This document shows, in pieces, positions 2,704 through 28,831 of a DNA stretch of 38,274 nucleotides. A program made the position numbers and the translations under genes. This stretch comes from an uncultured Candidatus Saccharibacteria bacterium (GTDB lineage Bacteria; Patescibacteriota; WWE3; UBA101185; UBA10185), in contig CAZHSR010000003.1 in NCBI GenBank assembly GCA_964535155.1, positions 1 to 38,274 of the forward strand. The letters run 5' to 3'. A model generated the notes under the pieces. It searched no databases and was not told where the DNA came from. It saw only the letters and a program-made list of their open reading frames with translations. How positions within the stretch are numbered: position 1 is the first letter of the stretch; each line of letters starts with the position of its first letter.

Positions 2704-4321
2704 ATACTCTCCAATAATTTAATCCGTTTATTTTCATTGTAAAATCGAGGTCAAACTGGTCATTGAGTTCATCAGGCACTTTTTCATTTGGACCTAATAC
2801 AACAATATCATAATTGGAAGGTCCAAATTCGCGGATGTCAAAAATGTGAGAGGATTTGTAGATTCTTGACATGGGCTTTGTGTCATAAAAGCCTAATTTG
2901 GGGGATTCTGTGGATTCCTCATAGGTTCCATATTTGGAAAGAATTTGGTTTTTTAGGTTGGGAATTCCTATACCGAAAGGCTTTTGAGCCACAATATAAT
3001 GGGCATTTTCTGGGGAGCCAACAAGGGGGGTAAAATATGTAAATTGATAAGGATGAAATGCAAAATTTAAAGATAATAGAGCCATAGTAGAGAGAATTAA
3101 AAAGGGTTTTTGGTATTTTTGAGGAATTGTTTTTTCATAACCAATGAAGCTAAAAAGACAAAGGAGGGGAAAAATGGGGATTAAGTAACGATCTATTTTT
3201 TTGGAAGATATTGTCATAGTTGCCATGTAACCTAAGTAGAAAATGGTAAGGATTATCCTTAAGGCCATGGGGTTTTTGCCTTTGATGGGGAGCAAAGAAT
3301 TAAATCTGCTAAGGATTATCCTTGGGAGATCTCGGCTTTTTTCAGCAGTTAGGGCAAAAACCCCCAAGTGCCTAAGGATAATCCTTGTAAAAAGTAGAAG
3401 CCCTATAAATAAAATCGGGGAAGTTTTTAGAAAAATTAAAACAGGATAAAAAGTTAAACCCGGATCAATGGTCTCTTGGCCAAAGTAAATTTGCTCATGC
3501 CCCTTGCGAATCCCAATTCTTTCAGCCTCAGTAAAAATTTTTGTTATTGTATCAATAGGAGCCACCCATGTTGCAGGAAAGAAAACAAAAACCGCCAGAA
3601 AAAACCCCATCAGGAAAAAGAAAATTTGGCGCAAAAGTTCCTTCGGTTGGTTAAAGTAACAAAAAACTAAAAAGGCCAATATAAAGGGCAAACCTCCAAT
3701 TGAGATACTTTTAGTCAAAAATGAAAATGCCAAGAAAACGCCAGAAGCAAAAACATACCACCTTGAAAATTTTTCATTAGGAAAAGCCGAAATATAAGCC
3801 AAAACCAGCGAAATCAGCAAAAAAAGGCTCAACAGAACATCCATGTGAAGCAAGCGAGAATTCCCAATAAAAAAAGGCTCCAAACTAAAAAACCCAACCA
3901 ACAAAACAGCCTTTTTTAAATCAAAGAGCTTCTTAAAGAGCCAAATCAAACCAAGAGAAAGCATCAACTGCGCAAAAACAACAGCATATTTTGCAACCGT
4001 ATGCATCAATATAAAATTTTCTTGATTATAAACCCGCAAAGAAGGCTCAATTTGTCGCACAATCTCTATAGCTACGCCCATGATCCACATTAAAGTCACT
4101 CCAGGATGATAATACTGATAAGTCCTTTCCCATTGATGAGCCTTTAAACCGTCAATAAACTGCTCCGATCTATAATGCCAATTTACTGCATCAGGATTTA
4201 TTGAATCTTGTCCTAAATAGGGAAGGCGCGTTAACAGAAAAAGTGCAACAAAAAGTGCAACCAAAAACCAAGAAGAGTTTATTAAACGATTAAAAAGACT
4301 AGTCGCTTTTTCCAAGAGCAT
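2684..4321 (-). CDS. GT-C fold membrane glycosyltransferase (ArnT/PMT-like family) carrying palindrome cluster A in frame
   Basis: The track ORF is 2684-4381. I prefer the ATG at 4321 (MLLEKATSLFN...), just before TM1. Paralogue motifs are shared with the 1-1175 gene. The segment RIILRHLGVFALTAEKSRDLPRIILSRFNSLLPIKGKNPMALRIIL is encoded by repeat cluster A. Confidence 0.7.
   Translation of the reverse strand: MLLEKATSLFNRLINSSWFLVALFVALFLLTRLPYLGQDSINPDAVNWHYRSEQFIDGLKAHQWERTYQYYHPGVTLMWIMGVAIEIVRQIEPSLRVYNQENFILMHTVAKYAVVFAQLMLSLGLIWLFKKLFDLKKAVLLVGFFSLEPFFIGNSRLLHMDVLLSLFLLISLVLAYISAFPNEKFSRWYVFASGVFLAFSFLTKSISIGGLPFILAFLVFCYFNQPKELLRQIFFFLMGFFLAVFVFFPATWVAPIDTITKIFTEAERIGIRKGHEQIYFGQETIDPGLTFYPVLIFLKTSPILFIGLLLFTRIILRHLGVFALTAEKSRDLPRIILSRFNSLLPIKGKNPMALRIILTIFYLGYMATMTISSKKIDRYLIPIFPLLCLFSFIGYEKTIPQKYQKPFLILSTMALLSLNFAFHPYQFTYFTPLVGSPENAHYIVAQKPFGIGIPNLKNQILSKYGTYEESTESPKLGFYDTKPMSRIYKSSHIFDIREFGPSNYDIVVLGPNEKVPDELNDQFDLDFTMKINGLNYWRVYVKNRL
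3248..3386. repeat. Palindrome cluster A: 3 perfect copies of AAGGATWATCCTT with a 63-bp period, inside a CDS
   Basis: Copies at 3248-3260, 3311-3323 and 3374-3386, separated by two 50-nt spacers. Spacer ends next to the outer copies are inverted repeats of each other (3261-3281 aaggccatggggtttttgcct versus 3351-3373 agggcaaaaacccccaagtgcct). Confidence 0.9.
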
Positions 4322-5300
4322 AAAGTACCCCTCCGATGAGGCTAACCAATAATCTGGAAAAGTGATACAAAATGGAGGCACTTAAAGCCATGGAAGCTGA
4401 AACTCCGACCATGCCAAGAAAGCTCATATATAAGGCATCTTGCACGCCAAATCCGTTGAGGGAAGGGATAAAAAATCCTGCAAAAGTTATGACTGGTAAA
4501 ACGAAGAGGGCAAATGTAAAGGGCACTTCTAGACCAAGGGCTAAGAAAACAAAGTATTGGGGCAAAATGGAAACGGCTTGAATTAGGAAAGAGGTCAGAA
4601 AAGCAATGAATAAAGCTTTTTTTGCGTCTTTATAAACTAGGAGGGAGTCACGAATTTTTCTGAAGAAACCAATTCTTTTTGCGAGTAAATTTAAAGACAA
4701 GAATCCAATTATTGCGGCAATCCAAAATCCTGAGAAAAGGGAAAATTTAAATAAAAAGACCCATAAAGAGTTGGCCTGAATTTCTGGGGGCAAAATTCCT
4801 ACCCAAAAGTCCATTGTTCTAATTAAACCAAAGTAGGAAATAAGAACTAGAGAAGCCATTCCTGTAAAACGCTCCATAAAAGTTGAGGAAAATCCAACTG
4901 CGTTATTTTTTATCTTGCGACCAAGCTGGTACATTTTGTAAACATCTCCACCAACACTTGTAGGCATAAAATTGTTGAAAAAAGATCCAATAAAGTAGAG
5001 ATTAATTAAGTATTTTGTGGAAACTTCTTCGGCATCTTCGGAAAGTAAAAGCATTTTCCAGCGTACGCCACCTATAAAATAATGAATGATGATAAAAATT
5101 GGGACGAAAATGGCGTATCTATAATCTAAAAGGCGAATATTTTCTATGAGTTCTGCGGTGTCAACACGAGTGAAAATTATTAATAACAAAATGGCGCTGG
5201 TGCCTAGTTTTAGGGCCATCTTTTTCCAAGATTTGTTCTTGGTTGTAGTAGTAGTCTCTAGTGTTTTTTCCTGCTCATTCATAACAAAAGAATTATACAC
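4299..5300 (-). CDS. UPF0104 / lysyl-phosphatidylglycerol-synthase-TM-like (flippase-like) membrane protein
   Basis: 333 aa with about 8 TM segments. The motif FMPTSVGGDVYK resembles the conserved GGD/GGE loop of this family. Such genes commonly accompany GT2/GT-C genes. The start could instead be M7 (5282). Confidence 0.55.
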   Translation of the reverse strand: MYNSFVMNEQEKTLETTTTTKNKSWKKMALKLGTSAILLLIIFTRVDTAELIENIRLLDYRYAIFVPIFIIIHYFIGGVRWKMLLLSEDAEEVSTKYLINLYFIGSFFNNFMPTSVGGDVYKMYQLGRKIKNNAVGFSSTFMERFTGMASLVLISYFGLIRTMDFWVGILPPEIQANSLWVFLFKFSLFSGFWIAAIIGFLSLNLLAKRIGFFRKIRDSLLVYKDAKKALFIAFLTSFLIQAVSILPQYFVFLALGLEVPFTFALFVLPVITFAGFFIPSLNGFGVQDALYMSFLGMVGVSASMALSASILYHFSRLLVSLIGGVLYALGKSD

Positions 5301-6072
5301 TAGTAATAAAGTATCTGTTGTACTCGTCCCCTTTTGTGTTAGTGGTGTAGGATTTTAGGATTTCTAGGTGGGCGTCTTGGCAAAGCTTTGTGGCTTCTTC
5401 GGTGGAGATGTAGTGACAATAGCGAATTGCTTCGACGCCTTTTGACCAGGTTAGTAAGTAATCGTGTTCTTCTAATTCTTTTAATTCGGAAAGGTTGATA
5501 TTTTGGCTTTCCCAAGGAGCAACATTTTTGGGAAAATTTGGGGCTTTTACAAATTCCCATGTGGAGAAGACTATTTTTCCTTGAGGGGCTAACAAGGCTT
5601 TAAGGATTTTTAACAGTTCTAATCTCTTTTCATACGAAGGGATGTGATGCAGGACTCCAAAAAGGGCTATAAGGTTAAATTTTTCCTTTGTGAAAGGTTC
5701 TTGCTCGAAGGGGTTTTTTGGATCTGAGCTTAAAATATCAATGGATTTGAAATCGGAATTGGGAAGGTTTTTTTGAGCTTTTTGGAGTAGAAAATCATCA
5801 AAGTCTATGCCAAAGTAATTGGCTTGATTAAAATTAGGAATTTTTTCCTTTAAGAAGAGCCCAAATCTTCCGTTTCCGCAGCCGACATCTAAAACTTTGG
5901 GGGTTTCTTTTAGAGCCTCGTTTGAGATTCCCTCTGAAGCTGTGTCTAGAAAAGGCAAGACGCCGTTCCACCCTTCCCAATAGTATTCTCTAGTGGAATC
6001 AAAGTGAGGTGCAACTCTGGAATAAAATTCTTTATTTATATCGTTAAGGGATTTAATAAGACTTGCATTCAT
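5293..6072 (-). CDS. Class I SAM-dependent methyltransferase, Trm9-like (candidate tRNA mcm5U34 methyltransferase)
   Basis: SAM motif I VLDVGCGNGRFG. N-terminal FYSRVAPHFDSTREYYW matches the Trm9 signature (yeast Trm9 VYNEIAPHFSQTRYKPW, recalled from memory). Also FGVLHHIPSYEKRLELL and the C-terminal IRYCHY (Trm9 YRYYHLY). Divergent from elp3. Confidence 0.7.
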   Translation of the reverse strand: MNASLIKSLNDINKEFYSRVAPHFDSTREYYWEGWNGVLPFLDTASEGISNEALKETPKVLDVGCGNGRFGLFLKEKIPNFNQANYFGIDFDDFLLQKAQKNLPNSDFKSIDILSSDPKNPFEQEPFTKEKFNLIALFGVLHHIPSYEKRLELLKILKALLAPQGKIVFSTWEFVKAPNFPKNVAPWESQNINLSELKELEEHDYLLTWSKGVEAIRYCHYISTEEATKLCQDAHLEILKSYTTNTKGDEYNRYFITSV

Positions 6073-6078
6073 AGTGTC

Positions 6079-6084
6079 AGTATA
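6079..6084 (-). promoter_or_regulatory. -10 box TATACT placed for a leaderless transcript of the Trm9-like gene
   Basis: The minus strand reads TATACT-gacact-ATG, with 6 nt between the hexamer and the start at 6072. No Shine-Dalgarno sequence. Confidence 0.45.
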
Positions 6085-6096
6085 ACCTATATTCTG

Positions 6097-6239
6097 AAGG
6101 ATAATCCTTGGAGAAATCTGGAGTTCAGCTTGTCATTAAAACTAAAACGCATAGTTGCCCAAAGGATTATCCTTAACGAAACTCAAGGTTTATCCTGTAA
6201 ATAAAGCTCAAAGTCCCATTTTGTTAAAGGATTATCCTT
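6097..6239. repeat. Palindrome cluster B: 3 perfect copies with a 65-bp period in the Trm9-like/elp3 divergent intergenic region
   Basis: Copies at 6097-6109, 6162-6174 and 6227-6239, with 52-nt spacers. A degenerate copy aaggtttatcctg lies at 6185-6197. Confidence 0.9.
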
Positions 6240-6247
6240 GGTATAAT
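6239..6247 (+). promoter_or_regulatory. Extended -10 (TGgTATAAT) of elp3
   Basis: TGGTATAAT lies 9 nt upstream of the ATG at 6257. Its TG is formed by the last T of palindrome copy B3 and the G that follows it. Confidence 0.45.
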
Positions 6248-6256
6248 AGACAAAGT

Positions 6257-7942
6257 ATGTATAAAACTGAAAAATATGCTTTTGACCCTTCTAAATACGA
6301 AGAGGAACTAATTGAAATCTTCAAAGCAGTCGACCAAATAAAAACCCCCGAATGGAATGGGGCTGTATTTAGATCCATTCAAGCAAAATATCCTAAAGAT
6401 AAAAGTAAAATGTTTAGTAAAAATGACTTAATAAAAGGCTATAGATACATCTTATCCAAAGGAAAAATCAAAGGAGGAATCGCTGGTAAAGCTACTGAGT
6501 CAAAAGACCTAATCCAAAAAATCCGTATGAAACCCATTAGAACCCTTTCTGGCGTGACACCAGTTACAGTCCTAACAAAGCCATGGGCGTGTCCGGGTAA
6601 ATGCATTTATTGCCCAAATGAGCCAAACATGCCAAAAAGCTATATTCAAAGCGAACCAGGGGCACAAAGAGCTGCTTTTTTGGACTTTGATCCATATATG
6701 CAGACAGCAAAAAGAATCCAGTCACTACAGCATATTGGGCATAACACAGAAAAGGTTGAGTTAATAGTCTTGGGAGGATCTTGGTCGGTATATCCAGAAA
6801 ATTACAAAAGATGGTTTATAAAACGGTGTTTTGAGGCAATGAATAATCCAGATGAGGAAAGTCCAAATTTAGAAGAAGCGGAAACTTCTTGGGAAGATCT
6901 AGCAAAACAACAAAAAATAAATGAGACAGCAGAACATAAATGCGTGGGACTTTCTTTGGAAACGCGCCCAGATTTAATTACAGAACAAGAGGTCGTTAAA
7001 CTTAGAAGATATGGGGCAACCAAAATTCAAATTGGGATACAAAGCTTAGACGATGAGATTTTGGCAAAAAATTTACGAGGGCACACTGCTTCTACAACAA
7101 AAAAAGCCTTTGAACTTTTGAGACTCTCCGGATTTAAAATTCATGCCCATTGGATGGTAAATTTATTCGGTGCTACTCCAGAAGGCGAAATTGAGGATTT
7201 TAAAAAGCTTTGGTCATCCGATTATTGCCCAGATGAGCTAAAAATTTACCCAACTTCGGTTATTGCAAACACAAAATTAGAGGAATTGTATAAATCTGGG
7301 GAGTATGTCCCCTACTCTACTGAAAAGCTCGTGGAGATTGTGGCAAAGCTAAAAACTATGGTTCCACCTTTTTGCAGGATAACAAGAGTAATTCGCGACA
7401 TCCCTTCACAAGAGATTGTAGCCGGAAGTAAAGTTTCTAATTTGAGGCAAGATGTTAAAAGGTATCTGGAAGAAATTGGCGAAGAGTGTGAATGCATTAG
7501 GTGCCGAGAAATTAGGCAAAATGAAGTGGAAGAAAGCGATTTGATTTTAAAAGTGGACGAATATAAAACTTCGGTTTCTAATGAGTATTTTTTATCTTTT
7601 GTAACGGAAGAAAATAAAATTGCGGGATTCTTGAGGCTTTCTGTGCCATTTGCTGAAAAAAGAGAAGGGCATTTTATTGAGGAGTTAAAAGATTCAGCAA
7701 TAATTAGAGAAGTGCATGTTTATGGGAGCGTTGTTGGTATAGGGAAAGAAGAGGAAGGGAAGGCACAACATTTTGGATTGGGAAAAAAGCTGATTGAAAA
7801 GGCGGAAGAAATTACAAGGGAAAATGGGATAGAAAATCTGGCTGTTATTTCAGCTATTGGAACAAGAGAATATTACAGGAAGAGGGGTTTTGATATAGGG
7901 GATGGGGATTTGTACATGCACAAACAGAAGCTCAACGACTAG
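6257..7942 (+). CDS. elp3: Elp3-family radical SAM / GNAT acetyltransferase (tRNA U34 cm5 modification enzyme)
   Basis: Radical SAM cluster motif CPGKCIYCP. C-terminal GNAT block IREVHVYG...QHFGLGKKLIEKAEEI...ISAIGTREYYRKRGF is typical of Elp3. The track ORF starts at TTG 6155; I prefer ATG 6257 (MYKTEKY...), downstream of the -10 box. Confidence 0.85.
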   Translation: MYKTEKYAFDPSKYEEELIEIFKAVDQIKTPEWNGAVFRSIQAKYPKDKSKMFSKNDLIKGYRYILSKGKIKGGIAGKATESKDLIQKIRMKPIRTLSGVTPVTVLTKPWACPGKCIYCPNEPNMPKSYIQSEPGAQRAAFLDFDPYMQTAKRIQSLQHIGHNTEKVELIVLGGSWSVYPENYKRWFIKRCFEAMNNPDEESPNLEEAETSWEDLAKQQKINETAEHKCVGLSLETRPDLITEQEVVKLRRYGATKIQIGIQSLDDEILAKNLRGHTASTTKKAFELLRLSGFKIHAHWMVNLFGATPEGEIEDFKKLWSSDYCPDELKIYPTSVIANTKLEELYKSGEYVPYSTEKLVEIVAKLKTMVPPFCRITRVIRDIPSQEIVAGSKVSNLRQDVKRYLEEIGEECECIRCREIRQNEVEESDLILKVDEYKTSVSNEYFLSFVTEENKIAGFLRLSVPFAEKREGHFIEELKDSAIIREVHVYGSVVGIGKEEEGKAQHFGLGKKLIEKAEEITRENGIENLAVISAIGTREYYRKRGFDIGDGDLYMHKQKLND

Positions 7943-7943
7943 A

Positions 7944-8342
7944 CTAAAGAAACGAATCCAAAGAGCGATCATCAGTAACATTGGTTGTAGGTAGAGCTGC
8001 TCCCGCATCAGATATAAATTCTCGAGCTACTTCTTCTGGAACACCTTTCTGCTCACAATCGAGAATGTATCTAGCTAGGTCGTAACCATACCTTTGTACT
8101 TCTCCTAGTGAATCAGGTTCAATAGTATCTCCGCTCTTGAGAGCATCCAAATACACTCGGTACCCCTCCGTATGCATGGGCTTAACCTGAGAATCAGCCT
8201 CCGAAGAATGTATAAATTGTACACTCTGTTCCTCAAGCGCCCTAAAGGCTAAATATCTCCTAGCCAAATCATACCCACCAGAGGATAGGCTTTCATCATT
8301 AACTAATCTTCCATAAAGTTCTGCTTTTGACTTTTCATCCAT
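7944..8342 (-). CDS. Hypothetical small acidic protein with an internal GYDLAR-x-YL duplication
   Basis: 132 aa. Contains GGYDLARRYLAF and YGYDLARYILDC. Strong SD (TAGGAGtaatgtATG), unlike its leaderless neighbours. Local GC is about 42-45% by hand count on two 60-nt lines, against 18-38% for neighbouring lines. Confidence 0.5.
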   Translation of the reverse strand: MDEKSKAELYGRLVNDESLSSGGYDLARRYLAFRALEEQSVQFIHSSEADSQVKPMHTEGYRVYLDALKSGDTIEPDSLGEVQRYGYDLARYILDCEQKGVPEEVAREFISDAGAALPTTNVTDDRSLDSFL

Positions 8343-8427
8343 ACATTACTCCTATAAAACATATAATGAAGTAGATATATTGTAACCTAAGCAAGAAGAA
8401 AAACAACCTAATGTGTAATCTGGGTTC

Positions 8428-9906: not shown

Positions 9907-9913
9907 ACATTTA

Positions 9914-14440: not shown

Positions 14441-15706
14441 TCATTGTATCAAAAGCTGTTCTAATTCTTTTATGTTCTTGTCTATGTCAAACATTGCCAA
14501 AGCTTTTTGTCGCAAAATTTCACAAGGATAATCCTTGGCCGTTTTGGCACTTTGCTCTGTTGCCACAGGCAAATCCCCCATTTTTATGAAGGATAATCCT
14601 TGAAGGATTGCATCAGCCAATGCCTTTGGATCCCTTTGTGGCACTATCCAACCAGTTTTTTCGTCAACTAATTCAAGGATACTCCCTGCATCTGTTGCAA
14701 CTATTGGCTTTGCCAACATTGCTGCTTCTATTATAAAAGTGGGGATACCATCGGCGTCACCAGAATCTAGGTTTATATTTGACTGCACAACCAAATCACA
14801 GGCCTTTAAATAAGAGACAACTTCATTAAAAGGCACCCCTTCGCCTCCGCCATGTATAAAAACATTATCTTGTAGCCCTAAAGAGGCTATCTGTTGAGTA
14901 AGCTCTTGATACAAAGGACCTGGCCCTGCAATATGCAGTTCAAAATCCAAACCGTTATCCTTTAAAATTTTTGCCGCCTCAATCAAATACTTTTGCCCCT
15001 TCTTTTCTACCAAGCGAGCGCCACCATTAAACAAAAAAGGTCTTGTTCCCCTTTTCGCAGGAGGGACAGAATCAAAGGACGCCACAGAATCTATTCCATG
15101 GTATTGCAATAAAACATTTTCAGGAGCTTCAACACCAGAACGCCTAATGCAATCTTCATAAGCAAAGCGATTACAAATGGAAATGAATTTTGCGGTTGCT
15201 ACTTTGGAAGCAAAAAATTCACCTTCTACCATTACATCCTTTGCATGTGCCGAAATACTATATGGAATTTCCAGCAACTTTGACCCTATCATTGCCATTG
15301 TAGAAGGCCACGACATGAAATTTGCATGAATATGATCAGGAGAAAGTTGTTTAAATAAGTAAGCATATCCAACCGATTTGGCAAAAATAACCAATTTTTT
15401 GGCTAAAGTTTCTTCCTTTGTGGAAAGTAAAAATCTAAAAGTTTTCCCTAAAACCGAAGGTTTCCTGCTCAAAAAATAAATCCAAGCTCTAATTGCCGTT
15501 ACAAAATCCAATCTCTGATAAACAACATGAGTTGCAACATTATCAAATAATCTTCCACTAGCCTTTTCCAAAGAGAAAACAGTTATTTCTAAATTTCCTA
15601 AATCTACGAGCTTAGAAATTTCCCTCTGAATAAAAGTTTCAGTTAAACGCGGAAACTCAGGAACAAAAATAAGAATTTTCTTTTTTTTGTCCTGATTTTT
15701 CTGCAT
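14441..15706 (-). CDS. GT4 family glycosyltransferase carrying palindrome cluster C in frame near its C-terminus
   Basis: 421 aa. DGIPTFIIEAAMLAKPIVATD block. The C-terminal segment QGLSFIKMGDLPVATEQSAKTAKDYPC is encoded by the repeat cluster. Confidence 0.8.
   Translation of the reverse strand: MQKNQDKKKKILIFVPEFPRLTETFIQREISKLVDLGNLEITVFSLEKASGRLFDNVATHVVYQRLDFVTAIRAWIYFLSRKPSVLGKTFRFLLSTKEETLAKKLVIFAKSVGYAYLFKQLSPDHIHANFMSWPSTMAMIGSKLLEIPYSISAHAKDVMVEGEFFASKVATAKFISICNRFAYEDCIRRSGVEAPENVLLQYHGIDSVASFDSVPPAKRGTRPFLFNGGARLVEKKGQKYLIEAAKILKDNGLDFELHIAGPGPLYQELTQQIASLGLQDNVFIHGGGEGVPFNEVVSYLKACDLVVQSNINLDSGDADGIPTFIIEAAMLAKPIVATDAGSILELVDEKTGWIVPQRDPKALADAILQGLSFIKMGDLPVATEQSAKTAKDYPCEILRQKALAMFDIDKNIKELEQLLIQ
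14443..14451 (-). promoter_or_regulatory. Extended -10 (TGaTACAAT) placed for a leaderless start of the GT4 gene at 14436
   Basis: The minus strand reads TGATACAAT-gaatcc-ATG. It overlaps the 3' end of the upstream GT4 gene. Confidence 0.4.
14524..14601. repeat. Palindrome cluster C: 2 perfect copies 65 bp apart, inside a CDS
   Basis: AAGGATAATCCTT at 14524-14536 and 14589-14601, with a 52-nt spacer. Total length 78 bp = 26 codons. Confidence 0.9.
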
Positions 15707-18954: not shown

Positions 18955-18958
18955 ATTT

Positions 18959-20235: not shown

Positions 20236-20267
20236 TAAATTGATTATAAAGGAAGTTTCACTCCCAT

Positions 20268-20294
20268 ACAAAAACCCCGCAAAAGCGGGGCTTT
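20268..20294 (-). terminator. Rho-independent terminator downstream of hup
   Basis: The minus strand reads GCCCCGC-UUUU-GCGGGG followed by UUUUUG. The stem is at 20275-20290 and the A run is at 20270-20274 on the plus strand. Confidence 0.65.
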
Positions 20295-20315
20295 TGTATA
20301 AAAGCGAAAAAAGAA

Positions 20316-20591: not shown

Positions 20592-20638
20592 TGTGTTAGT
20601 GCACCCCCTTTCAAAAAAACTGCCTGGCTTAATAATTT

Positions 20639-21412
20639 TCAAGAGTCAAGACGAGTTATCGTCTTTGTGACTGAATCTAATAATACACTTCTAAACGCTG
20701 TTGCGCCAGTCTTTTCCCAATCGAATTTTTGTGCCCTTGCTGTAAGGAAGGAATTTATGATTATATCAGCCTTAACCCCAAGTACTGAGTCAATATTTCC
20801 TGTCATGCCAACATCGGTTACAAACATAGTTCCGTTTAATAAAGTTCTAAAGTCACATGTTGGAATATGCGTATGAGTACCTACAATTGCGTCAACTTTT
20901 CCGTCTAAATAAAAAGCTAGAGCATTTTTTTCACTTGTGGCTTCGGCATGGAAATCTATTAAGGAAAAGACATTTTTTTCGCCTGAATATTTGGCTAAAA
21001 TTTTCTCTGCAGTCGTAAAAGGATCTTCTAAATAAGCCATTTTGGAAGAAAATGAAGTTCTACCTAATAAGTTAATTAAAAGTAGATAACCTTTATCACC
21101 AAGATCAAAAAGTTCATAACCTTTCCCTGGAGCTTCAGCAGGGTAATTTGCTGCTCTTATAACAGGTAAATCTTCAATCTCGGATTCAAAGTCTTTGTTA
21201 TGAAAAATATGATCACCACCTGTAAAGAAATTAACTCCCACATCCATCATTTCCTTTATAGTCTTTTCAGAGGCACCCCTTCCATGACAAAGATTATCTG
21301 CACAACCAACAACTACATCTATGGAATGTTCTTTAATTAATCCGGGCAAAACACTTTTAACTTTGTCTCTGCCTGGACTTCCAACTATGTCGCCAATAAA
21401 AAGTACTTTCAT
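20639..21412 (-). CDS. ymdB: YmdB-type (TIGR00282) metallophosphoesterase
   Basis: MKVLFIGDIVGSPGR, GGDHIF and GTHTHIPT motifs. Conserved synteny with rny. Confidence 0.85.
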   Translation of the reverse strand: MKVLFIGDIVGSPGRDKVKSVLPGLIKEHSIDVVVGCADNLCHGRGASEKTIKEMMDVGVNFFTGGDHIFHNKDFESEIEDLPVIRAANYPAEAPGKGYELFDLGDKGYLLLINLLGRTSFSSKMAYLEDPFTTAEKILAKYSGEKNVFSLIDFHAEATSEKNALAFYLDGKVDAIVGTHTHIPTCDFRTLLNGTMFVTDVGMTGNIDSVLGVKADIIINSFLTARAQKFDWEKTGATAFRSVLLDSVTKTITRLDS

Positions 21413-21621
21413 TTTTCTACCTTTCTAATGTGAAAATTATCTACCTCGTACATGTCTAAAATTTTGACAGGTTCCGATGCGGAAAGGATGAAAATGTAAA
21501 TCCCTCCTATTAACAAGGCCAAACCTGCAACAATAAGAAAACTCTTTAAAACAGAGCTTACTACCCTAACAACAAAGGAATAAACAAGTATTAATGCTAT
21601 TACAAGCAATATATAGTACAT
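21409..21621 (-). CDS. Small 2-TM membrane protein
   Basis: 70 aa with two hydrophobic helices. Tightly packed between rny and ymdB with an ATGA overlap. Confidence 0.4.
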   Translation of the reverse strand: MYYILLVIALILVYSFVVRVVSSVLKSFLIVAGLALLIGGIYIFILSASEPVKILDMYEVDNFHIRKVEK

Positions 21622-21622
21622 A

Positions 21623-23281
21623 TTAGCGAGCGGTTTCAGTGATCCTAGTTTCTCTTATTACAGTAACATTTACAACACCAGGATAATTTTGCTCTAATTC
21701 TATTTTACGGGCTATTTCCCTTGCTAGCAAGGCTGTGGAAGCGTCATCAACTACTTTAGGCTCTACAAAAACGCGAACCTCTCTTCCAGCGGAAATAGCG
21801 TAAGCCTTTTCAACTCCATCAAAGGTTAAAGCGGCGTCTTCTAACTCCTTCATTCGCTTGGAGAAGGACTCATAATCTTCAGATCTAGCACCTGGTCTAG
21901 CACCACTAATATGGTCTGCTAAAGCTACAAGAGCGGACTCTATAGAGCTATATTTATCACCATGATGTTCTTTTATACAGGTTAAAATCTCTTCTGAAAT
22001 ACCTTTTTCTTGCAAGTATTCAATTCCATGGTCAACATGACTTCCCTTTCCATCAGGGGATAAGACTTTTCCTATGTCATGGAGAAGACATCCCACTTTT
22101 ACGGTCTCTACATTTGCACCTAATTCTCTAGCTAAAACCATGCCTATATTTGCTACTTCTAAGGTGTGTTTAATTAGATTTTGGCCATAAGAAAAGCGAT
22201 ATTTAAATTTGCCTAAAACACTAACTATATCTTTTGGTAGATCATAAACACCTAACATGTGGCACAATTTGTCACCTTCTTTGTAAATTATGTGTTCCAT
22301 GTCTTTTTGGGTTTCTTGGACGAGGTCTTCTATTCTAACGGGCTGAATTCTGCCATCTGCTAGGAGTCGTTCCATTGCTACACGCCCAACTTCCCTTCGT
22401 ACGGGGTCAAAACATGAGATTATGATGTCTCCTGGGGATGAGTCCAGATCTAACTCCACTCCTGTTAGCTTTTCAAAAGTCATAATATTTCGTCCCTCTT
22501 TTCCAATGATTCTTCCTTTCATATCAGCTTCTGGAAGCTTAATTTTTGCAGTTGTGTGCTCAACAACATAATCTGTCGTGCCATGAGAAAGCGCATCTAA
22601 AAGTATTTCCTGAGACTTTTGATCTGCTGTCTTTTTTATATCTTCCTCTAATTGGCGAATCCTTTTTGCTTTTTCCTCTTGTAGATCCTTATCAAATCTT
22701 GATAGTAACAGCTCGCGAGCTTCTTCTCTTGTAAGTGAAGAAACCTCTTGTAGCTTTTTCTTTTGATTATCCAAAATCTGATCTATTTCTTCCTTTTTCT
22801 TTTCTATTGCCTCTTTTGTTGCGTTAATTGAGTCAGCCTTTTCTTTTAACTCTTCTTTTTGGGCATCAATTTTTGCCTCTGTTACAGCTAAATTCTTTTC
22901 AGATTCCGAAACTTCTTCGCGTATTTTTGATGCCTTTTCTGTGGCCTCATTTGTAATTTGAAGAGCTTTATCTTTTGCCTCTAATAAAATCTCCTTGGCA
23001 CGATTTTTTGCCTCTCTAACAAGCTGCAGCTCATCTATTTTGGATGAAACGGGTTCTGTTGGCGTAGTTACTGGTTCTTGTGGCAAAACTACCGGAGGTA
23101 CCTGATCCACCACTGGGGCTTCTTCTGTTACAGGCGTCTCTTCCGAAGGGATCTGCTCCCCATCCGAAGGGATCTCCGCGTCTTTAGCATCCGACTGACC
23201 AACCTTTTTACTTTGAATAGAATACGCCACACCACCGCCCACAACTGCAGAAATTAAGAGTCCTAAAAGTATAAATTCCAT
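21623..23281 (-). CDS. rny: Ribonuclease Y
   Basis: N-terminal TM, Lys/Glu-rich coiled coil, KH motif GRIIGKEGRNI and HD motif LLHDIGK. A Pro/Glu/Thr-rich stretch follows the TM segment. Confidence 0.9.
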   Translation of the reverse strand: MEFILLGLLISAVVGGGVAYSIQSKKVGQSDAKDAEIPSDGEQIPSEETPVTEEAPVVDQVPPVVLPQEPVTTPTEPVSSKIDELQLVREAKNRAKEILLEAKDKALQITNEATEKASKIREEVSESEKNLAVTEAKIDAQKEELKEKADSINATKEAIEKKKEEIDQILDNQKKKLQEVSSLTREEARELLLSRFDKDLQEEKAKRIRQLEEDIKKTADQKSQEILLDALSHGTTDYVVEHTTAKIKLPEADMKGRIIGKEGRNIMTFEKLTGVELDLDSSPGDIIISCFDPVRREVGRVAMERLLADGRIQPVRIEDLVQETQKDMEHIIYKEGDKLCHMLGVYDLPKDIVSVLGKFKYRFSYGQNLIKHTLEVANIGMVLARELGANVETVKVGCLLHDIGKVLSPDGKGSHVDHGIEYLQEKGISEEILTCIKEHHGDKYSSIESALVALADHISGARPGARSEDYESFSKRMKELEDAALTFDGVEKAYAISAGREVRVFVEPKVVDDASTALLAREIARKIELEQNYPGVVNVTVIRETRITETAR

Positions 23282-23462
23282 AAATTCCTTTCTTTTGGCT
23301 ATTTAAAGCCACAAATTCAATTAATATATTAAGAAAGAGAAAAATGGAAAGGATTAAAAAACCCGCAATTTCCCAGTATTAAGCCGTAAAGTATGATTGT
23401 AGTTATTAAAATAAATCATATTTTTTGTCCATAAAAATCCATTTTCCTCAATGGAGTCAATT

Positions 23463-23942
23463 TTAGTTTCTTTTGAGTTTTCTGTCAACAAAGGTACAAA
23501 TGGTGTTGTAATTAAACCCTCTCTGTCTTAAATAGTGAATTATTTTTGCAGGGTCATCAGAATTATATTTTTCTATATTTTTTTGTATTAAATTCTTTTC
23601 ATCTTCCAAAGAGTAGTGAAAATTAAGTGCTTTTTCGCATATCTGCTTGGGCACACCTTTTTTTCTTAAAAATTGAGTTACATAGTGAGGACCTTTTGGC
23701 TTGGATTTCTTTTTTTGCTCTTCAATATAAGAAATAGCATAGTCCAAATCATCTATGTAACCAATTTCTTGTAATCTCTTTATAGCCTCATTTGTTAAGT
23801 TCTCTTTTTCCTCCGCGGATACTTCCTCAAAGGGGTGCAAAAAGTTTAGAGACTTTTGTTTTACTTCATATTCAGTACGAGGTTTATATGAAAGGTACTT
23901 CAATATGTAATTCTGTAAGTCAACAAAAATCTCTTCGGACAT
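23463..23942 (-). CDS. recX: RecX-like regulatory protein
   Basis: 159 aa helical-repeat protein immediately downstream of recA. RecX-like segments RTEYEVKQK, IGYIDDLDYAISYI and FLRKKGVPKQI. Confidence 0.65.
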   Translation of the reverse strand: MSEEIFVDLQNYILKYLSYKPRTEYEVKQKSLNFLHPFEEVSAEEKENLTNEAIKRLQEIGYIDDLDYAISYIEEQKKKSKPKGPHYVTQFLRKKGVPKQICEKALNFHYSLEDEKNLIQKNIEKYNSDDPAKIIHYLRQRGFNYNTICTFVDRKLKRN

Positions 23943-23948
23943 TTAGCG

Positions 23949-25049
23949 TTATTCTTTATCAGGAACTGCTTCTGGAACATCCTTTGGTACTTCCGGATTC
24001 TTATTTGTTGTTCCAATTGCAAAGTTTTTATTTAGGGTATCTCGAACTTCCTTCTCTAAAGAATCCCTTATTTTTGTATTTTCCTTTAGATAAGCAATAG
24101 AATTTACGCGACCCTGACCTATTTTTTCACCCTTATAGCTATACCAAGCACCACTTTTTTCTACCAATTCCATATTTGCACCCACATCCAACAAGTTTCC
24201 TTCTCTACTAATTCCTTCGTTAAACATAATGTCAAATTCTGCGGTCTTAAAAGGAGGGGCAACCTTGTTTTTTACAACCTTAACGCGCACTCTGTTTCCC
24301 TGAAATTCATCCCCATCTTTTATGGATTCAATTCTTCGGATTTCCATTCTCACAGAGGCGTAAAATCTTAATGCCTTACCTCCACTAGTTACTTCTGGGT
24401 TTCCAAACATTACTCCTATATTGGTTCTTAACTGATTAGTAAAAATAACAGTGGTGCGGGACTTATTTACAATTGAAGTAATCCGTCTCAAAGCCTTACT
24501 CATTAATCTGGCCTGTAAAGCAATGGTTGAATCCCCTATTTCTCCTTCCAATTCTGCCTGTGGTACTAATGCCGCAACAGAGTCTATAGCTATTACATCC
24601 AAAGCGTTAGATCTAATTAAGGTTTCGGCTATTTCTAAAGCTTGTTCTCCAGTATCTGGTTGAGAAACTAAAAGCTCTTCCACATTTACTCCAGTTTTTT
24701 CAGCGTACATGGGGTCAAAAGCGTTTTCAGCATCAATTAAAGCAGCGGTTCCTCCAGCTTTTTGAGCCTCAGCAATAATATGTTGTACTAAAGTAGTCTT
24801 ACCCGAAGATTCTGGACCATAAATTTCTACAATTCTTCCTCTTGGGACGCCTCCAACTCCTAAAGCTATATCTAAAGCAATGGAACCTGTAGGGATTACA
24901 TCAATTCTCACTTTTGCCTTATCACCTAATTTCATAACTGCACCTACTCCAAAATCCTTTTCAATCTGAGACAAAGCTGACTTCAAAGCCATTTGCTTTG
25001 GATCTTTGGATTCAACTTTTTGCTCATTAATATCTTTTTGGGTTGCCAT
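23949..25049 (-). CDS. recA: Recombinase RecA
   Basis: Walker A motif GPESSGKTT plus the IDAENAFDP and FTNQLR blocks. I prefer the start at 25049 (MATQKD...) over the track start at 25112. Confidence 0.95.
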
Positions 25050-25148
25050 AATATTTTTCCTTTCAAAAAATTCTAATAAATCAATTCTATTGGAATAATC
25101 ATTTTGAATCAACGACTATATTCTAGTTTAAATAGATGTTTTTGCTAG

Positions 25149-26603
25149 TTATAGGATTTCTATTGCCATTTTAAGCCTATTTAACACTACTTCCTTGTCT
25201 ATTTTAGATAGAAAATCAAACAAAGGAGGCGTGGCTTTTTGCCCACTTACCGCCAGTCTTAGGGTCATAAATGCCTCTTTTGGGGAATATCCAAACTTGG
25301 TTAAGGCCTCATGAGAAACCTTATCTAGCTCTTCAGAATTCCAATTCTCTACATTCTCGTACAAACCGTAAAACTTTTGCAAAATCTCCGGGGTCTTTTC
25401 CTTTCCATAAGAAGTCAAATCTTCGGTTGAGATTTTTGGATCTTTAAAAAAGTACACTACCAAACTAGGAAATTCTGATAACAACTTCATTCGTTCCTTA
25501 ACTAGTTCAGTAATTTCTGCCATATACTCATCGGAAGCTTCTCCAATGCCTAAATCTACGCCAAATTCTTTAGCCCATTTTTTTACTTTTTGCCACAGCT
25601 CCACCGAAGTTAGCCCGCGAATATAATAACCATTCATCCAAAGGAGCTTTTGCCTATCAAACGCAACTAAATCAGTTTTATGCACTTTTTCCAACGAAAA
25701 ATCGGCAATAAACTCACCCAACGAGTAAATTTCCTTTTCTGTACCAGGATTCCAACCTAAAAACATTAAAAAGTTAAGTAAGGCCTCTGGCAAATAACCT
25801 TCACTAAGAAAATCTATGGCAAAAACCCCACCATGCCTCTTTGACATTTTTACATTACTACCTATTTCCTTTAAAACAGGTAAGTGAGCTACTAAAGGCA
25901 ATTCCCACCCAAAATATTTATATAACAAAACATGCTTTGGAGTAGAAGGAAGCCATTCCACGCCTCGAATAATGTGGGTAATTTCCATTAAATGGTCATC
26001 AACAACAACTCCCAAATGATATGTTGGATAACCATCGGATTTAAGAAGTACTGTATCGTCAATGTCATTGGAATTTACGCTTGTATCCCCCAAGATTTCG
26101 TCATGAAATGAAATTTCCTCATTTTCAGGAACATTTAACCTTATTACATAGGGAATTCCTGCATTCAATTTAGACTCAATCTCACTTTTAGAAAGCTTTA
26201 AGCATCTTTTATCATATTTTGTAACAGGCAAACCTTGAGATTTTTGCTCATTTCGCATAGTATCAAGCTCTTCCGAAGTACAAAAACAATAATAAGCTTT
26301 GCCTTTTGCTACCAATTCTTCGGCATACTTTTTATATAAATCTAATCTTTCAGATTGAACATAAGGGGCATGAGGACCGTCAACTTCTGGGCCTTCATCC
26401 CAGCTTAAACCATAGTCTTTAACAACTTGTAATAGCCTTTCTAAAGAGCCTTCCACATATCGATTACGGTCTGTATCTTCAATTCTTAAAACAAATTTTC
26501 CTTCTTGTTGCTTGGCAAAAGCCCAGTTATACAAAAAAGTCCGCATACTACCAATATGAAATTCACCTGTAGGGCTTGGAGCCATTCTTACTCTAACTGA
26601 CAT
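25149..26603 (-). CDS. gltX: Glutamate--tRNA ligase
   Basis: Class I HIGH-type motif PSPTGEFHIGS, the KMSKR loop, and 484 aa length. Confidence 0.95.
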   Translation of the reverse strand: MSVRVRMAPSPTGEFHIGSMRTFLYNWAFAKQQEGKFVLRIEDTDRNRYVEGSLERLLQVVKDYGLSWDEGPEVDGPHAPYVQSERLDLYKKYAEELVAKGKAYYCFCTSEELDTMRNEQKSQGLPVTKYDKRCLKLSKSEIESKLNAGIPYVIRLNVPENEEISFHDEILGDTSVNSNDIDDTVLLKSDGYPTYHLGVVVDDHLMEITHIIRGVEWLPSTPKHVLLYKYFGWELPLVAHLPVLKEIGSNVKMSKRHGGVFAIDFLSEGYLPEALLNFLMFLGWNPGTEKEIYSLGEFIADFSLEKVHKTDLVAFDRQKLLWMNGYYIRGLTSVELWQKVKKWAKEFGVDLGIGEASDEYMAEITELVKERMKLLSEFPSLVVYFFKDPKISTEDLTSYGKEKTPEILQKFYGLYENVENWNSEELDKVSHEALTKFGYSPKEAFMTLRLAVSGQKATPPLFDFLSKIDKEVVLNRLKMAIEIL

Positions 26604-26609
26604 GATGTG

Positions 26610-26615
26610 ATTTTA
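26610..26615 (-). promoter_or_regulatory. -10 box TAAAAT placed for a leaderless gltX
   Basis: The minus strand reads TAAAAT-cacatc-ATG (N6). Confidence 0.4.
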
Positions 26616-26632
26616 ACATGAAACTTTTGTAA

Positions 26633-26638
26633 TATAAT
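26633..26638 (+). promoter_or_regulatory. -10 box TATAAT placed for a leaderless start at 26646
   Basis: TATAAT-aaaagta-ATG (N7). Confidence 0.4.
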
Positions 26639-26645
26639 AAAAGTA

Positions 26646-27806
26646 ATGAGTTTAACTACAACTGCCAAAAACACCAAACTTGCCTTTTGGCTCTCAATAA
26701 TTTTTATAATCGTCTTTCTTTTGGGGAGGTACATTTTTATACCAACCTTGAAAACCGCCTATAATAGGGCTTTTCCTCCAAAAAATCCTCCAAATCCAGT
26801 ATATGGACTTTTAGATCCAATTGAATTTGAGCCGCAAAGAATCCTTAATACAACGCCTCCAAAATATACTTTATTTACAAAAGATGGAAGATTACCTGCA
26901 GATTTACCTAATAGAGCCACAGTTTATACATATGCACAACCTGCTTTTTCATATGAGGCTGGAAAAAGAGCTTCTGCTGATGCTAGTAAATTAGGGTTTT
27001 CAGATGCTACACTTTCCACAAGTTTAAAAGGCAACGAATATAGATGGGTTGACCCTGCAACAGGAGCAAGCCTTTTTGTTGACATAACAACTTCCGAATT
27101 GGAAATGAAAATTCCTGCATATTCTTTATTTGGAGCATTTAAACCAGGTTCTATAAACAGGGTAACTGGTCCCTCCACAGCTAAATCTATTTTGCAAAAT
27201 ATTGGCAGATTTTGGGATCCTTTATACACAAGCGGAACTCAAACTACAGAAATGGGAATTGTTAGAAATAATGGAATTGTTTACACAGCATTTCAAGGGG
27301 AAGCAGAAGTAGCAAGAGTTGACTTTTTTAGATCTGTTAATAATGTCCCACTTGTTGGCCCTGTTTATAAAGAGGGTTTAATTAGAATGGTGGTTGCAAT
27401 ACCAGAAAAGGACCAGGTTATAAGGAGGAGCCCTTATATTTATTACAATGTGAGGGAAATTGTGCAAAATTCTCAAGCTACTTATCCATTACTTCCTATT
27501 GCAACAGCTTGGGAAGAAGTTGCCAAAGGCGAGGGCGTAATTTCTTTTGTAAGACCAGGCACTCAAAGCGTTTTTGATGAATATAAGCCAATTAGAGTTA
27601 GTGAGGTTTTAATAACTGATATATTTTTGGCCTATTATGATGACACTAGAGAACAACCTTATTTACAACCTATTTATGTTTTTGAAGGAAGCTATACTGG
27701 ACCCGATAATTCTAAGGGGGGAATAGCTATTTATTATCCTGCAGTTTCTGGAGAATGGGTGAAGAAGGAAGAGGTTGAGACTGAGGCGATTGTGCCGGGA
27801 CAATAA
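26646..27806 (+). CDS. Hypothetical N-terminally anchored extracytoplasmic protein
   Basis: 386 aa with a single N-terminal TM (LAFWLSIIFIIVFLL). I recognise no family. Confidence 0.5.
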   Translation: MSLTTTAKNTKLAFWLSIIFIIVFLLGRYIFIPTLKTAYNRAFPPKNPPNPVYGLLDPIEFEPQRILNTTPPKYTLFTKDGRLPADLPNRATVYTYAQPAFSYEAGKRASADASKLGFSDATLSTSLKGNEYRWVDPATGASLFVDITTSELEMKIPAYSLFGAFKPGSINRVTGPSTAKSILQNIGRFWDPLYTSGTQTTEMGIVRNNGIVYTAFQGEAEVARVDFFRSVNNVPLVGPVYKEGLIRMVVAIPEKDQVIRRSPYIYYNVREIVQNSQATYPLLPIATAWEEVAKGEGVISFVRPGTQSVFDEYKPIRVSEVLITDIFLAYYDDTREQPYLQPIYVFEGSYTGPDNSKGGIAIYYPAVSGEWVKKEEVETEAIVPGQ

Positions 27807-27847
27807 TTTATTTTACAGCGGAGTTTTAAGAGCAAATCTCAAGAGCG

Positions 27848-28831
27848 CTAGTACCAAACGAAATTATTCTCCAACCAGTTAAGAATTGCCTTTGTTTCGG
27901 GGAATCTAGCCTCACTTCCCATTAGAATTATTAACAAATCCTTGTCTTCATCTGCATATTCATAAATTAAAACTTCCCTTGCCTGACTTGTTGTACCAGT
28001 TTTAATTCCTACGGATCCTGAAATTTGGGTTAAAAGCTGATTTGTTGAGTAAATTGTTCTTGGGATATTACCTGTTTCTAGGTTATAAAAAGGCTTGGCA
28101 TAAATTTCTTTAATTAAGGCATTTGCCTTTGCTCTTTGTGCCAAAATGTAAAGATCCTTTGCTGTAGACTTATGAGAATAATCAAAGCTGTCAAAGCCAA
28201 CGGGATTGGTAAAAATTGTATTTACCATGCCAAATTGAAGGGCTTTTTGGTTCATCAGTTGAACAAAAGTCTCTTCGGTTGTGGCGGTGTTAGCTAAAAT
28301 ACATGCAGCATCATTTGAAGAGGAAATCAGGGTCGCATGCAGAAGGTCTTTTACTGAAATTTCTTCGGCGAGGGTCAGGTCCAGGCGATTTCCTTCTACA
28401 TTTAGACACTTTTCTGGCGTATTAGATATGGGCAAGATTTCATCTAGGGAGTAAAGATCTAAACTCACTAATGCTGTCATAAGCTTTGTTGTTGAAGCTG
28501 GTGCCAAAATTGTGTCGGGATTCTTTTGATAAAGGATTCTTGTTGTGTTTAGATCTGCAACCAAAACCGATTTTGCTGATAAAGTAGGGAATTTTGCTTT
28601 TGTGGCGTTTGTGTTGGCGGCTCCTACTGCATGGGGGATTTTTGTCATACTTCCCAGAGTCACGGGATATAGTGTGAGGGATAATCCCTCAACCGAAAAG
28701 AGCTTCTCCCTATTGAGAAGGGTAAAAACCACAATTGCCACAAGGATTATCCTTCGCTCAATCCACACCAAGACTTTCAGTAAGGCATTAAGTGAAATTT
28801 CGTTAAGGATTATCCCTCGGACTATAGGCAT
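27848..28831 (-). CDS. D-alanyl-D-alanine carboxypeptidase (peptidase S11 / PBP5-like); the N-terminal ~55 aa are encoded by palindrome cluster D
   Basis: SxxK (ASTTKLMT), SxN (SSSNDAA) and KTG (IKTGTT) motifs. The ATG at 28831 is 3 nt after the aspS stop. The only hydrophobic anchor (RRIILVAIVVFTLL) lies within the repeat cluster. An alternative start at M62 (28648) would leave no export signal. Confidence 0.75.
   Translation of the reverse strand: MPIVRGIILNEISLNALLKVLVWIERRIILVAIVVFTLLNREKLFSVEGLSLTLYPVTLGSMTKIPHAVGAANTNATKAKFPTLSAKSVLVADLNTTRILYQKNPDTILAPASTTKLMTALVSLDLYSLDEILPISNTPEKCLNVEGNRLDLTLAEEISVKDLLHATLISSSNDAACILANTATTEETFVQLMNQKALQFGMVNTIFTNPVGFDSFDYSHKSTAKDLYILAQRAKANALIKEIYAKPFYNLETGNIPRTIYSTNQLLTQISGSVGIKTGTTSQAREVLIYEYADEDKDLLIILMGSEARFPETKAILNWLENNFVWY
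28677..28817. repeat. Palindrome cluster D: 3 copies (one perfect, two C/G variants) with periods of 65 and 63 bp
   Basis: AGGGATAATCCCT at 28677-28689, AAGGATTATCCTT at 28742-28754 and AAGGATTATCCCT at 28805-28817. The spacer module 28719-28741 agggtaaaaaccacaattgccac resembles 3351-3373 in cluster A. Confidence 0.85.

Follow-up and report, generated by a model that had tools for sequence, protein, structure and literature searches.

Chained palindromic repeats with conserved 13-bp ends and a 63–65-bp period in candidate division WWE3 bacteria

A 38,274-bp stretch of DNA from an uncultured Candidatus Saccharibacteria bacterium (contig CAZHSR010000003.1, positions 1 to 38,274; hereafter the window) was found to carry four short arrays of a 13-bp palindrome, AAGGATWATCCTT (AAGGAT-N-ATCCTT), whose copies follow one another at strictly limited distances. 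The arrays are real and non-random. They are best filed as an element family that is, in kind, like the repetitive extragenic palindromes (REP) and bacterial interspersed mosaic elements (BIME) or like the Rickettsia palindromic elements (RPE), and such repeats were previously undescribed in the WWE3 phylum. The explanation that is favoured here, with about as much doubt as confidence, is that a palindromic repeat element, lineage-specific and non-autonomous, makes up the arrays as chains, and that its ends would be kept by a putative co-evolving dimeric factor. The window has a G+C content of 36%, and the best named matches of its proteins are to candidate division WWE3, a phylum of the candidate phyla radiation.

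Eleven palindrome copies had been listed in the original prediction, made from the letters of the window alone, and all of them are present where it placed them. Array A (3248–3386) comprises perfect copies at 3248, 3311 and 3374 with two 50-nt interiors, and lies inside a gene for a PMT_2/GT39-like membrane glycosyltransferase. Array B (6097–6239), with perfect copies at 6097, 6162 and 6227 and two 52-nt interiors, is intergenic. Array C (14524–14601) is a single unit, with perfect copies at 14524 and 14589 around a 52-nt interior, in the C-terminal region of a gene for a glycosyltransferase of family GT4. Array D (28677–28817) occupies the first 52 codons of a D-Ala-D-Ala carboxypeptidase gene and combines the ninth perfect copy, at 28742, with two variants, at 28677 (AGGGATAATCCCT, itself a perfect palindrome) and 28805 (AAGGATTATCCCT). 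The start-to-start periods of the four arrays are 63,63 / 65,65 / 65 / 65,63. After correction for composition, 0.0028 exact copies of the 13-mer would be expected in the window, against the nine observed, and with up to two mismatches allowed there are 17 matches against 2.6 ± 1.6 in dinucleotide shuffles. The AAGGAT arms account for 9 of the window's 23 perfect palindromes of the 6-1-6 type; other arms never recur.

The pattern was also found outside the window. An exact-pattern scan for palindrome doublets with 45–60-nt gaps, covering one genome per species for 185,579 species, matched one genome only, that of candidate division WWE3 bacterium Bin_101, at six loci (L001–L006). In another 21-kb stretch of Bin_101 (L023), with synteny to the window, there is a seventh array, which is imperfect, and the positions of the window arrays are without one. 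A metagenome scan returned two related contigs (L007 and L009) and three chance tandem repeats, and no match to the array pattern was found in the viral contigs scanned. Among contigs with orthologues of the host genes, orthologous arrays are present in L012, L016, L019 and L020/L021, and L013–L015, L017, L018 and L022 are array-less relatives; the arrays are scattered over at least two genome lineages. The 63/65-bp periodicity that had been claimed is confirmed in the window, and over 17 arrays in total the 30 periods all measure 63 (n = 10), 64 (n = 6) or 65 bp (n = 14), with no other value, although some of the 17 arrays are orthologous and the counts are not fully independent for that reason. 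The recurrence for which the original prediction had proposed a genome-wide search is seen in Bin_101, through the species-representative scan, and in a few metagenome contigs. No paper containing the 13-mer was found in the literature searched, and keyword searches returned no description of such elements in Patescibacteria.

The repeat unit consists of a palindrome, a 50–52-nt interior and a second palindrome, 76–78 bp in all. Neighbouring units share one palindrome, arrays contain one to three units (two to four palindromes), and the outer palindromes are the array boundaries; none of the motif or composition features of the interiors was detected in the 34 outer flanks. Outward from the palindrome, the interiors favour A at +6 to +8, are G-rich at +10 to +13, and favour T at +15 to +18, C at +20 and T at +22 to +24. 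This position-specific composition is strongly non-random (p down to 1e-14) and symmetric about the interior centre. A Gibbs sampler with free strand and position recovered a 16-mer, AATAAAGGCAAAACCC, at 9.6 bits (7.2–7.9 in shuffled spacers), which starts at +24 to +26 in 25 of the 30 interiors without the position having been imposed (P about 1e-22). A matrix built from Bin_101 only recovers a central CTTT...AAAGG and places it at +20 to +22 in five of the seven window interiors (P 6e-5). The internal conserved motif is seen in the first unit of array A at 3269–3282 on the minus strand (AAGGCAAAAACCCC), in its second unit at 3351–3364 on the plus strand (AGGGCAAAAACCCC) and in array D at 28719–28732 on the plus strand (AGGGTAAAAACCAC), where the coding strand reads it as part of a membrane anchor (VVFTL).

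The interior consensus is weak and dyad-symmetric, n5-AAW-n2-GGG-n-TTTT-n-CYTTT-n2-4-AAAGG-n-AAAAA-n-CCC, and the differences between interiors of 50, 51 and 52 nt fall in the gap of its central CYTTT-n2-4-AAAGG. Overall identity among interiors is about 35–45%. Pairwise local alignment of the spacers against shuffled or random-genomic controls was at best marginal; this naive test was underpowered, at first suggested unrelated spacers and is superseded by the position-aware analyses, by which the spacers are indeed, as had been claimed, degenerate homologues of each other in either orientation. Units occur in direct and in inverted orientation within arrays. The two interiors of array A are inverted copies of each other (z 5.6), and those of L016 and of L006 are direct repeats, which suggests that arrays also grow by local duplication. 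Base-pairing or covariation within the interiors was considered and rejected, as RNAalifold gives only a stem between the two palindromes and mirrored interior positions form 256 pairs against 250 ± 12 expected from column composition. The lack of a pairing excess indicates that the dyad symmetry is a property of the consensus, most simply the trace of an ancestral foldback and not a maintained stem, and it argues for sequence recognition over a maintained interior stem in RNA or DNA.

The palindromes themselves are constrained at the DNA level. The orthologous genomes that bear arrays are 60–70% identical in protein, and the interiors of orthologous arrays 39–72% identical; palindrome conservation is about 97%. 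At third-codon positions within palindromes, 38 of 44 (86%) are identical between orthologous arrays, against 48% in the rest of the host genes (P 1.4e-7), which gives quantitative support to the earlier suggestion of selection on, or homogenisation of, the 13-mer. Where palindromes change, they mostly do so symmetrically, as AGGGAT.ATCCCT in the window and as AAGGAC.GTCCTT seven times in L007, L009, L012 and L020. Taken together, L012 and L020 have six array palindromes at two separate loci, of which five read AAGGAC.GTCCTT, altered in both halves and nowhere else, and the sixth has half of the change. Two solitary copies in these contigs stay AAGGAT.ATCCTT. One of them, in L020, has switched arrays 200 bp downstream and corresponds to a solitary one-mismatch copy of the window (AAGGATAACCCTT, 28995–29007) that lies in a gene for a class II tRNA synthetase, where it encodes KGLSL. 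This copy is perfect in L019 (1808), L020 (1186) and L021 (1142), and the mismatch of the window is synonymous. That the KGLSL copy did not switch suggests that the constraint is limited to paired copies, and it is probably outside the functional system.

Judged from these comparisons, neutral decay or coding selection cannot produce such symmetric, concerted change, which points to a trans-acting reader of the paired sites or to a homogenising process. Recognition of duplex DNA by a homodimer would be most economical, because a palindrome of the 6-1-6 type is unable to fold back on itself and covariation is seen at the positions on either side of its centre; it is also favoured because pairing between neighbours would not need each copy to be self-palindromic. 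A period of 63–65 bp corresponds to about 6.0–6.2 helical turns at 10.5 bp per turn, so that successive sites would share a helix face. Loss of the putative reader would then explain the lineages that lack arrays (L013/L017) or retain relics (L022, L016).

Comparison with orthologues showed three of the window arrays to be extra DNA. The array A host gene (2684–4381, minus strand; in the database, the protein begins 20 codons into the ORF) carries 47 amino acids at the array, in a loop between transmembrane segments, against 17 in the closest orthologue (P0122/L017, 65% identity), and L016 (60% identity) has an orthologous three-palindrome array of which two palindromes have decayed. Array B occupies a 184-bp spacer between a methyltransferase gene and a divergent ELP3-like radical-SAM/GNAT gene, and the same two genes are 23 bp apart in the syntenic L017. 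Array C adds 13 amino acids to its host protein (Glycos_transf_1, GT4; 14441–15706, minus strand) relative to most GT4 orthologues, which are without the segment; it recurs at the same site and in the same frame in L012 (70% amino acid identity) as AAGGACAGTCCTT / AAGGACTGTCCTT. Arrays A and C are both in frame and missing from close orthologues. Of the empty sites and target-site duplications for which an orthologue alignment had been suggested, orthologues lacking the extra sequence were found for A, B and C, and no target-site duplication was seen.

The reading frame continues through all three genic arrays of the window (A, C and D), giving RIIL, GLS[LF] or KDYP according to phase, as had been predicted. 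Array A reads RIIL three times, array C reads QGLSF...KDYP, and the array D palindromes read RGIIL, RRIIL and EGLSL. The rnhB array of Bin_101 is in one frame and separates the catalytic motif DEAGRGP from the motif DSKKL. The remaining Bin_101 arrays are at gene junctions, and three of their palindromes provide the upstream gene's stop codon or overlap it: gatB ends in GGA-TAA (L005:2002–2014), a recG-like helicase gene in GGA-TGA (L004:754–766), and the TAA of a hypothetical gene overlaps the first two bases of the palindrome at L023:5125–5137. Translational bypassing of the 50-nt interiors was considered and rejected, because the ORFs are continuous with the downstream protein in frame through 63-, 64- and 65-bp periods and hopping over 64 or 65 nt would destroy this frame.

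Array D differs from the other arrays. Its host gene (Peptidase_S11, 27848–28831, minus strand) directly follows the class II tRNA-synthetase gene and encodes a catalytic domain from residue 77; the array interiors code for the membrane anchor and for a helix at the N-terminus. The window shares this array with L019 and L020/L021, in which the periods are 63, 65 and 65, and its interiors carry the internal element motif (GGTTTTTACCC in the window, GGGTTTTTGCCTTT in L020). In a neighbour-joining tree of the carboxypeptidases, array-bearing genes are interleaved with array-less ones, and in the L022 gene only a one-mismatch relic palindrome is left. The simplest reading is that array D is an old array that has decayed in some lineages and has been co-opted as a signal anchor.

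At array B, an extended −10-like sequence, TGGTATAAT, abuts the last palindrome (6227–6256), 9 nt 5' of the ATG of the ELP3-like gene; it was not listed by a consensus promoter scan because there is no −35 hexamer at that place. The GT4 C-terminal site of array C is an insertion hot spot, at which several orthologues (L013:11100–11314 (P0003), P0019, P0020, P0006 and P0007) carry 3–28 unrelated residues without palindromes. In L007 (1054–1240), AAGGACAGTCCTT and CAGGACTATCCTG each stand 54 bp outside a 63-bp pair, and in L009 (2933–2965) AAGGACTGTCCTT stands just 4 nt past a standard copy. The gltX-recA junction of L020 has two copies, 77 bp apart (4942–4954 and 5019–5031), of another perfect 13-bp palindrome, CTATTTAAAATAG, which may represent paired terminators or belong to a second family of repeats.

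The favoured explanation, a dispersed palindromic element with maintained ends, would imply the following history. An ancestral unit would have had the 13-bp palindrome at each end and an interior derived from a dyad-symmetric foldback. Units would have dispersed to many unrelated sites within the genomes of one WWE3 subclade, presumably by palindrome-targeted or palindrome-mediated copy-insertion; the four unrelated contexts of the four window arrays support dispersal. New units would have been added beside an existing one, sharing its palindrome, with insertion at the palindrome or duplication or template-switching across it as the likely routes. Copies would survive where harm is small, that is between genes, at gene ends where they can supply stop codons, and in tolerant protein loops or termini; intragenic copies would be translated and occasionally co-opted, as in the carboxypeptidase membrane anchor. 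The interiors would decay almost to randomness while the terminal palindromes and the 63–65-bp spacing were kept. The most likely reason for this persistence would be a putative homodimeric DNA-binding protein that reads palindrome pairs on one helix face. It may be an element-mobilising enzyme, as the REP-associated tyrosine transposase (RAYT) is for REP doublets (REPINs), or a host protein that uses the sites, possibly to the benefit of the host, and sites and protein would co-evolve.

Three hypotheses had been offered in the original prediction, and the first, a coding-tolerant palindromic element of the Rickettsia type, is the best supported, through the homologous units, the palindrome boundaries, the unrelated loci, the extra DNA and the in-frame translation. 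A plain decaying mobile element, however, leaves the conservation of palindromes at orthologous sites and their concerted symmetric change unexplained. The second, phased operators, fits in its core, namely dimeric recognition with six-turn phasing. For the third, recombination or nucleoid-structuring sites, the evidence speaks neither for nor against.

Several observations weigh against the favoured explanation. The array D interiors show a collinear alignment with the N-termini of orthologues in which palindromes are absent or reduced to relics, and if the palindrome-less orthologues never had the element, the palindromes arose there in place and not by insertion. No target-site duplication or conserved outer flank was found, the bases adjoining the outer palindromes showing no consistent repeat; a repeat of AAGTAGAA 5–6 bp outside array A is an isolated case. 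No recent near-identical copies were seen, nor any empty-versus-filled polymorphism between close strains, and L020 and L021, which are 99.7% identical, show no difference in the array. No transposase, RAYT-type gene or other dedicated gene was seen in about 107 kb (the 38-kb window, the 21 kb of L023 and 48 kb around six Bin_101 arrays), where the only recombinase is an Xer-like one of the tyrosine type, which lies 1.8 kb away from an array of Bin_101; the window proteins include no transposase, recombinase, Cas or Nop-domain protein. Finally, the treatment of L012 and L020 as one genome was drawn solely from their common sample and similar coverage, and the same holds for L016 and L019.

Two known kinds come closest to the WWE3 repeat, the RPE and the REP, BIME and REPIN group. 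RPEs are single elements of 100–150 bp with a full-length consensus, found as old, diverged copies that are intergenic or translated in frame, adding surface or loop peptides to the proteins; no transposase is known for them. Like them, the WWE3 repeat is a short non-autonomous palindromic repeat of a reduced-genome bacterium, intergenic as well as translated in frame, and a common consensus over the length has its counterpart in the weak but significant fixed-position motifs of the WWE3 interiors. The likeness is one of kind and by description. The WWE3 repeat differs in phylum and in having a unit of 76–78 bp, an almost randomised interior with conserved 13-bp ends, chaining with shared ends and a strict 63–65-bp period.

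The REP sequences of proteobacteria are imperfect palindromes of 20–40 nt that form a hairpin by themselves, are strictly extragenic, co-evolve with RAYT, decay when RAYT is lost and are bound by host proteins; the BIME-1 (RIP) unit joins a REP, a central protein-binding linker and an inverted REP. The WWE3 arrays resemble REP, BIME and REPINs in having a palindrome much more conserved than the sequence around it, in regular clusters of alternating orientation with motif-bearing linkers of fixed length. Unlike REP, the 6-1-6 13-mer with its one-base centre is unable to fold back on itself, four of the arrays (A, C, D and that of Bin_101 rnhB) are intragenic, and a gene for a RAYT (Y1/HUH transposase) was not seen in the roughly 107 kb examined. 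Miniature inverted-repeat transposable elements (MITEs) such as Correia/NEMIS share the small non-autonomous form, the terminal inverted repeats, the dyad symmetry of the whole element and the possibility of gene-end insertion with supply of stop codons or promoters. Unlike MITEs, the WWE3 repeat came with no target-site duplication or parent insertion sequence, each of its termini is itself a perfect palindrome, and its copies are not recent, have dissimilar interiors and keep their ends at orthologous sites across deep divergence.

Dispersed protein-binding sites such as the KorB operator OB, matS, parS and NrdR box pairs are perfect or near-perfect palindromic dimer sites of 13–16 bp, inside and outside genes and conserved at the DNA level, and NrdR boxes are phased by whole turns. 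The WWE3 palindromes share the 6-1-6 size class, DNA-level conservation regardless of coding and integral-turn spacing with them. Unlike these solitary or paired sites, however, the arrays have an element-like interior and were gained as blocks of extra DNA. Integron attC sites consist of R''/L''-L'/R' core sites (RYYYAAC ... GTTRRRY), form single-strand hairpins with extrahelical bases and have an adjacent intI; the ends of the WWE3 unit are AAGGATNATCCTT, no interior pairing is maintained, the arrays lie inside ORFs and the sole tyrosine recombinase seen is Xer-like. The original prediction could not match the arrays to REP/BIME, clustered regularly interspaced short palindromic repeats (CRISPR), MITE or attC architecture, and defining features of each are indeed missing.

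A bolder interpretation, which we hold to be doubtful, is that the arrays would be the cis half of an undescribed cis-element/trans-factor system of the candidate phyla radiation. A dedicated dimer would read six-turn-spaced pairs and maintain or rewrite them in place, for exchange, inversion or deletion of 64-bp cassettes in envelope genes or for chromosome organisation or segregation. The element-like interiors would then be secondary, and the symmetric T:A to C:G switch would be an example of rewriting.

It is unlikely, in turn, that the arrays are host operator or nucleoid sites which evolved in place under a chromosomal protein (a regulator, a centromere-like system or a nucleoid organiser) and six-turn selection, with no mobile or duplicative element. 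Such sites would account for the DNA-level constraint, the strict 63–65-bp phasing and the concerted palindrome change in one lineage, and many arrays do end 12–70 bp upstream of a start codon. Array D shows nearly no length change against array-less orthologues, with whose N-termini its interiors align, and the solitary KGLSL copy shows that the palindrome can occupy native coding sequence. However, interior motifs at fixed positions across unrelated loci and genomes are not predicted by palindrome evolution alone, arrays A, B and C, like the rnhB array of Bin_101, consist of additional DNA, there is no functional theme among neighbouring genes, and arrays lie within essential-looking coding regions. 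Canonical parS is absent from the window, in which the only helix-turn-helix proteins are a DUF134-like protein and HU.

Site-specific recombination cassettes, in which a recombinase would invert or delete 63–65-bp segments as in an intragenic inverton or shufflon and so recode or phase-vary envelope proteins, appear quite improbable. In-silico inversion between any two array A palindromes leaves the 565-codon ORF open, as does one array D inversion, but the other inversions in arrays C and D bring stop codons. Units do occur in both orientations within arrays, a palindromic site whose only asymmetry is the central base would permit both inversion and deletion, and the window host genes are envelope-related. 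On the other hand, all orthologous C and D arrays agree in the orientation of their units, many of the arrays lie between genes, the regions examined showed no invertase gene, and a 50-nt segment is very short for the synapsis of duplex sites. A comparison of inverted units between the window and L016 is ambiguous because the interiors are themselves dyad-symmetric. Arrays A and D had been described as open in both orientations, with plus-strand ORFs at 3243–3449 and 28545–28871. Both ORFs exist and the description is true, but the property is not statistically special: the spacers have 2.65 of 6 frames open, against 2.7–3.0 for random 51-mers of the same sequences, and openness of both strands as a designed property was rejected for want of any enrichment.

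An RNA-level element seems similarly improbable. Neighbouring palindromes would pair as a 13-bp stem with a loop of about 50 nt and would act in processing, stability or translation at cistron junctions, in the manner of REP. The consensus fold is indeed the stem between the two palindromes, arrays fold better than shuffles (z −2.5 to −7.6; array A forms one hairpin of −68 kcal/mol at z −7.6), many arrays are at co-oriented gene junctions, and the neighbouring palindromes of L012 and L020 are exact reverse complements, centre base included. Pairing between neighbours needs complementarity alone, however, and yet every copy has remained a palindrome in itself; neighbours often have central bases that do not complement each other, imperfect copies are without a consistent G-U-compatible strand, the interiors do not covary, and stems inside ORFs would be melted by ribosomes. 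No Rfam family was matched; at the gathering threshold the window yielded only tRNA, and a miRNA-precursor match that the hairpin of array A gave at a relaxed threshold, with 29 bits where 144 are required, is spurious.

CRISPR arrays have repeats of 23–50 bp, unique spacers, a leader and usually cas genes. TIGR-Tas systems, named for tandem interspaced guide RNA, have been reported in bacteria that belong to the candidate phyla radiation; their 36-nt units have two alternating repeats of 8–12 nt with 9-nt spacers, or are box C/D stem-loop units, beside a tas gene with a Nop domain (PMC12045711). Although the WWE3 arrays likewise alternate short conserved repeats with interiors of constant length and diverse sequence, orphan mini-arrays of either type are effectively refuted, since the repeat is merely 13 bp, the arrays have 2–4 repeats at periods of 63–65 bp without box C/D motifs, are scattered and lie within ORFs, the interiors are mutually homologous and kept between genomes as partly coding sequence, and no cas or Nop-domain gene was found in the regions examined, nor any match of the interiors in viral contigs or a phage collection.

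The Bin_101 arrays, at least seven in number, adjoin lgt/rpiB, gyrA/rnhB, rseP, recG-like/rsmD, gatB/polA, a gene for a Laminin_G protein and recJ. Genes acting on DNA (gyrA, rnhB, recG-like, polA and recJ) make up 5 of the 14 neighbours of the seven arrays, which looks beyond chance. In the window, the array neighbours are envelope genes, and no palindrome copy lies near recA; these two points speak against the idea of an SOS box or regulon, which the DNA-metabolism neighbours in Bin_101 had raised. The window also encodes the ELP3-like radical-SAM and GNAT protein (6257–7942), a DUF3800 protein (32397–33179) and the small DUF134-like helix-turn-helix protein (36918–37196), which adjoins thioredoxin-like genes; none of the three has an obvious link to the repeat.

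Members of the candidate phyla radiation have tiny, streamlined genomes, and their repeats, regulation and chromosome biology are almost uncharted. The present arrays indicate that such genomes tolerate and keep a repeat that adds 20–47 residues to glycosyltransferases, RNase HII and a penicillin-binding-type carboxypeptidase, and that the same repeat can supply stop codons and possibly a membrane anchor. Elements of this kind inflate or alter the predicted proteins of metagenome-assembled genomes, and could serve as lineage markers. Their unusual property is that the 13-bp ends and the six-turn spacing are actively kept while the interiors decay. This contrast between decayed interiors and ends conserved beyond the synonymous background, together with the concerted change, points to a putative sequence-specific protein, and the 13-mer would provide a direct handle for finding it.

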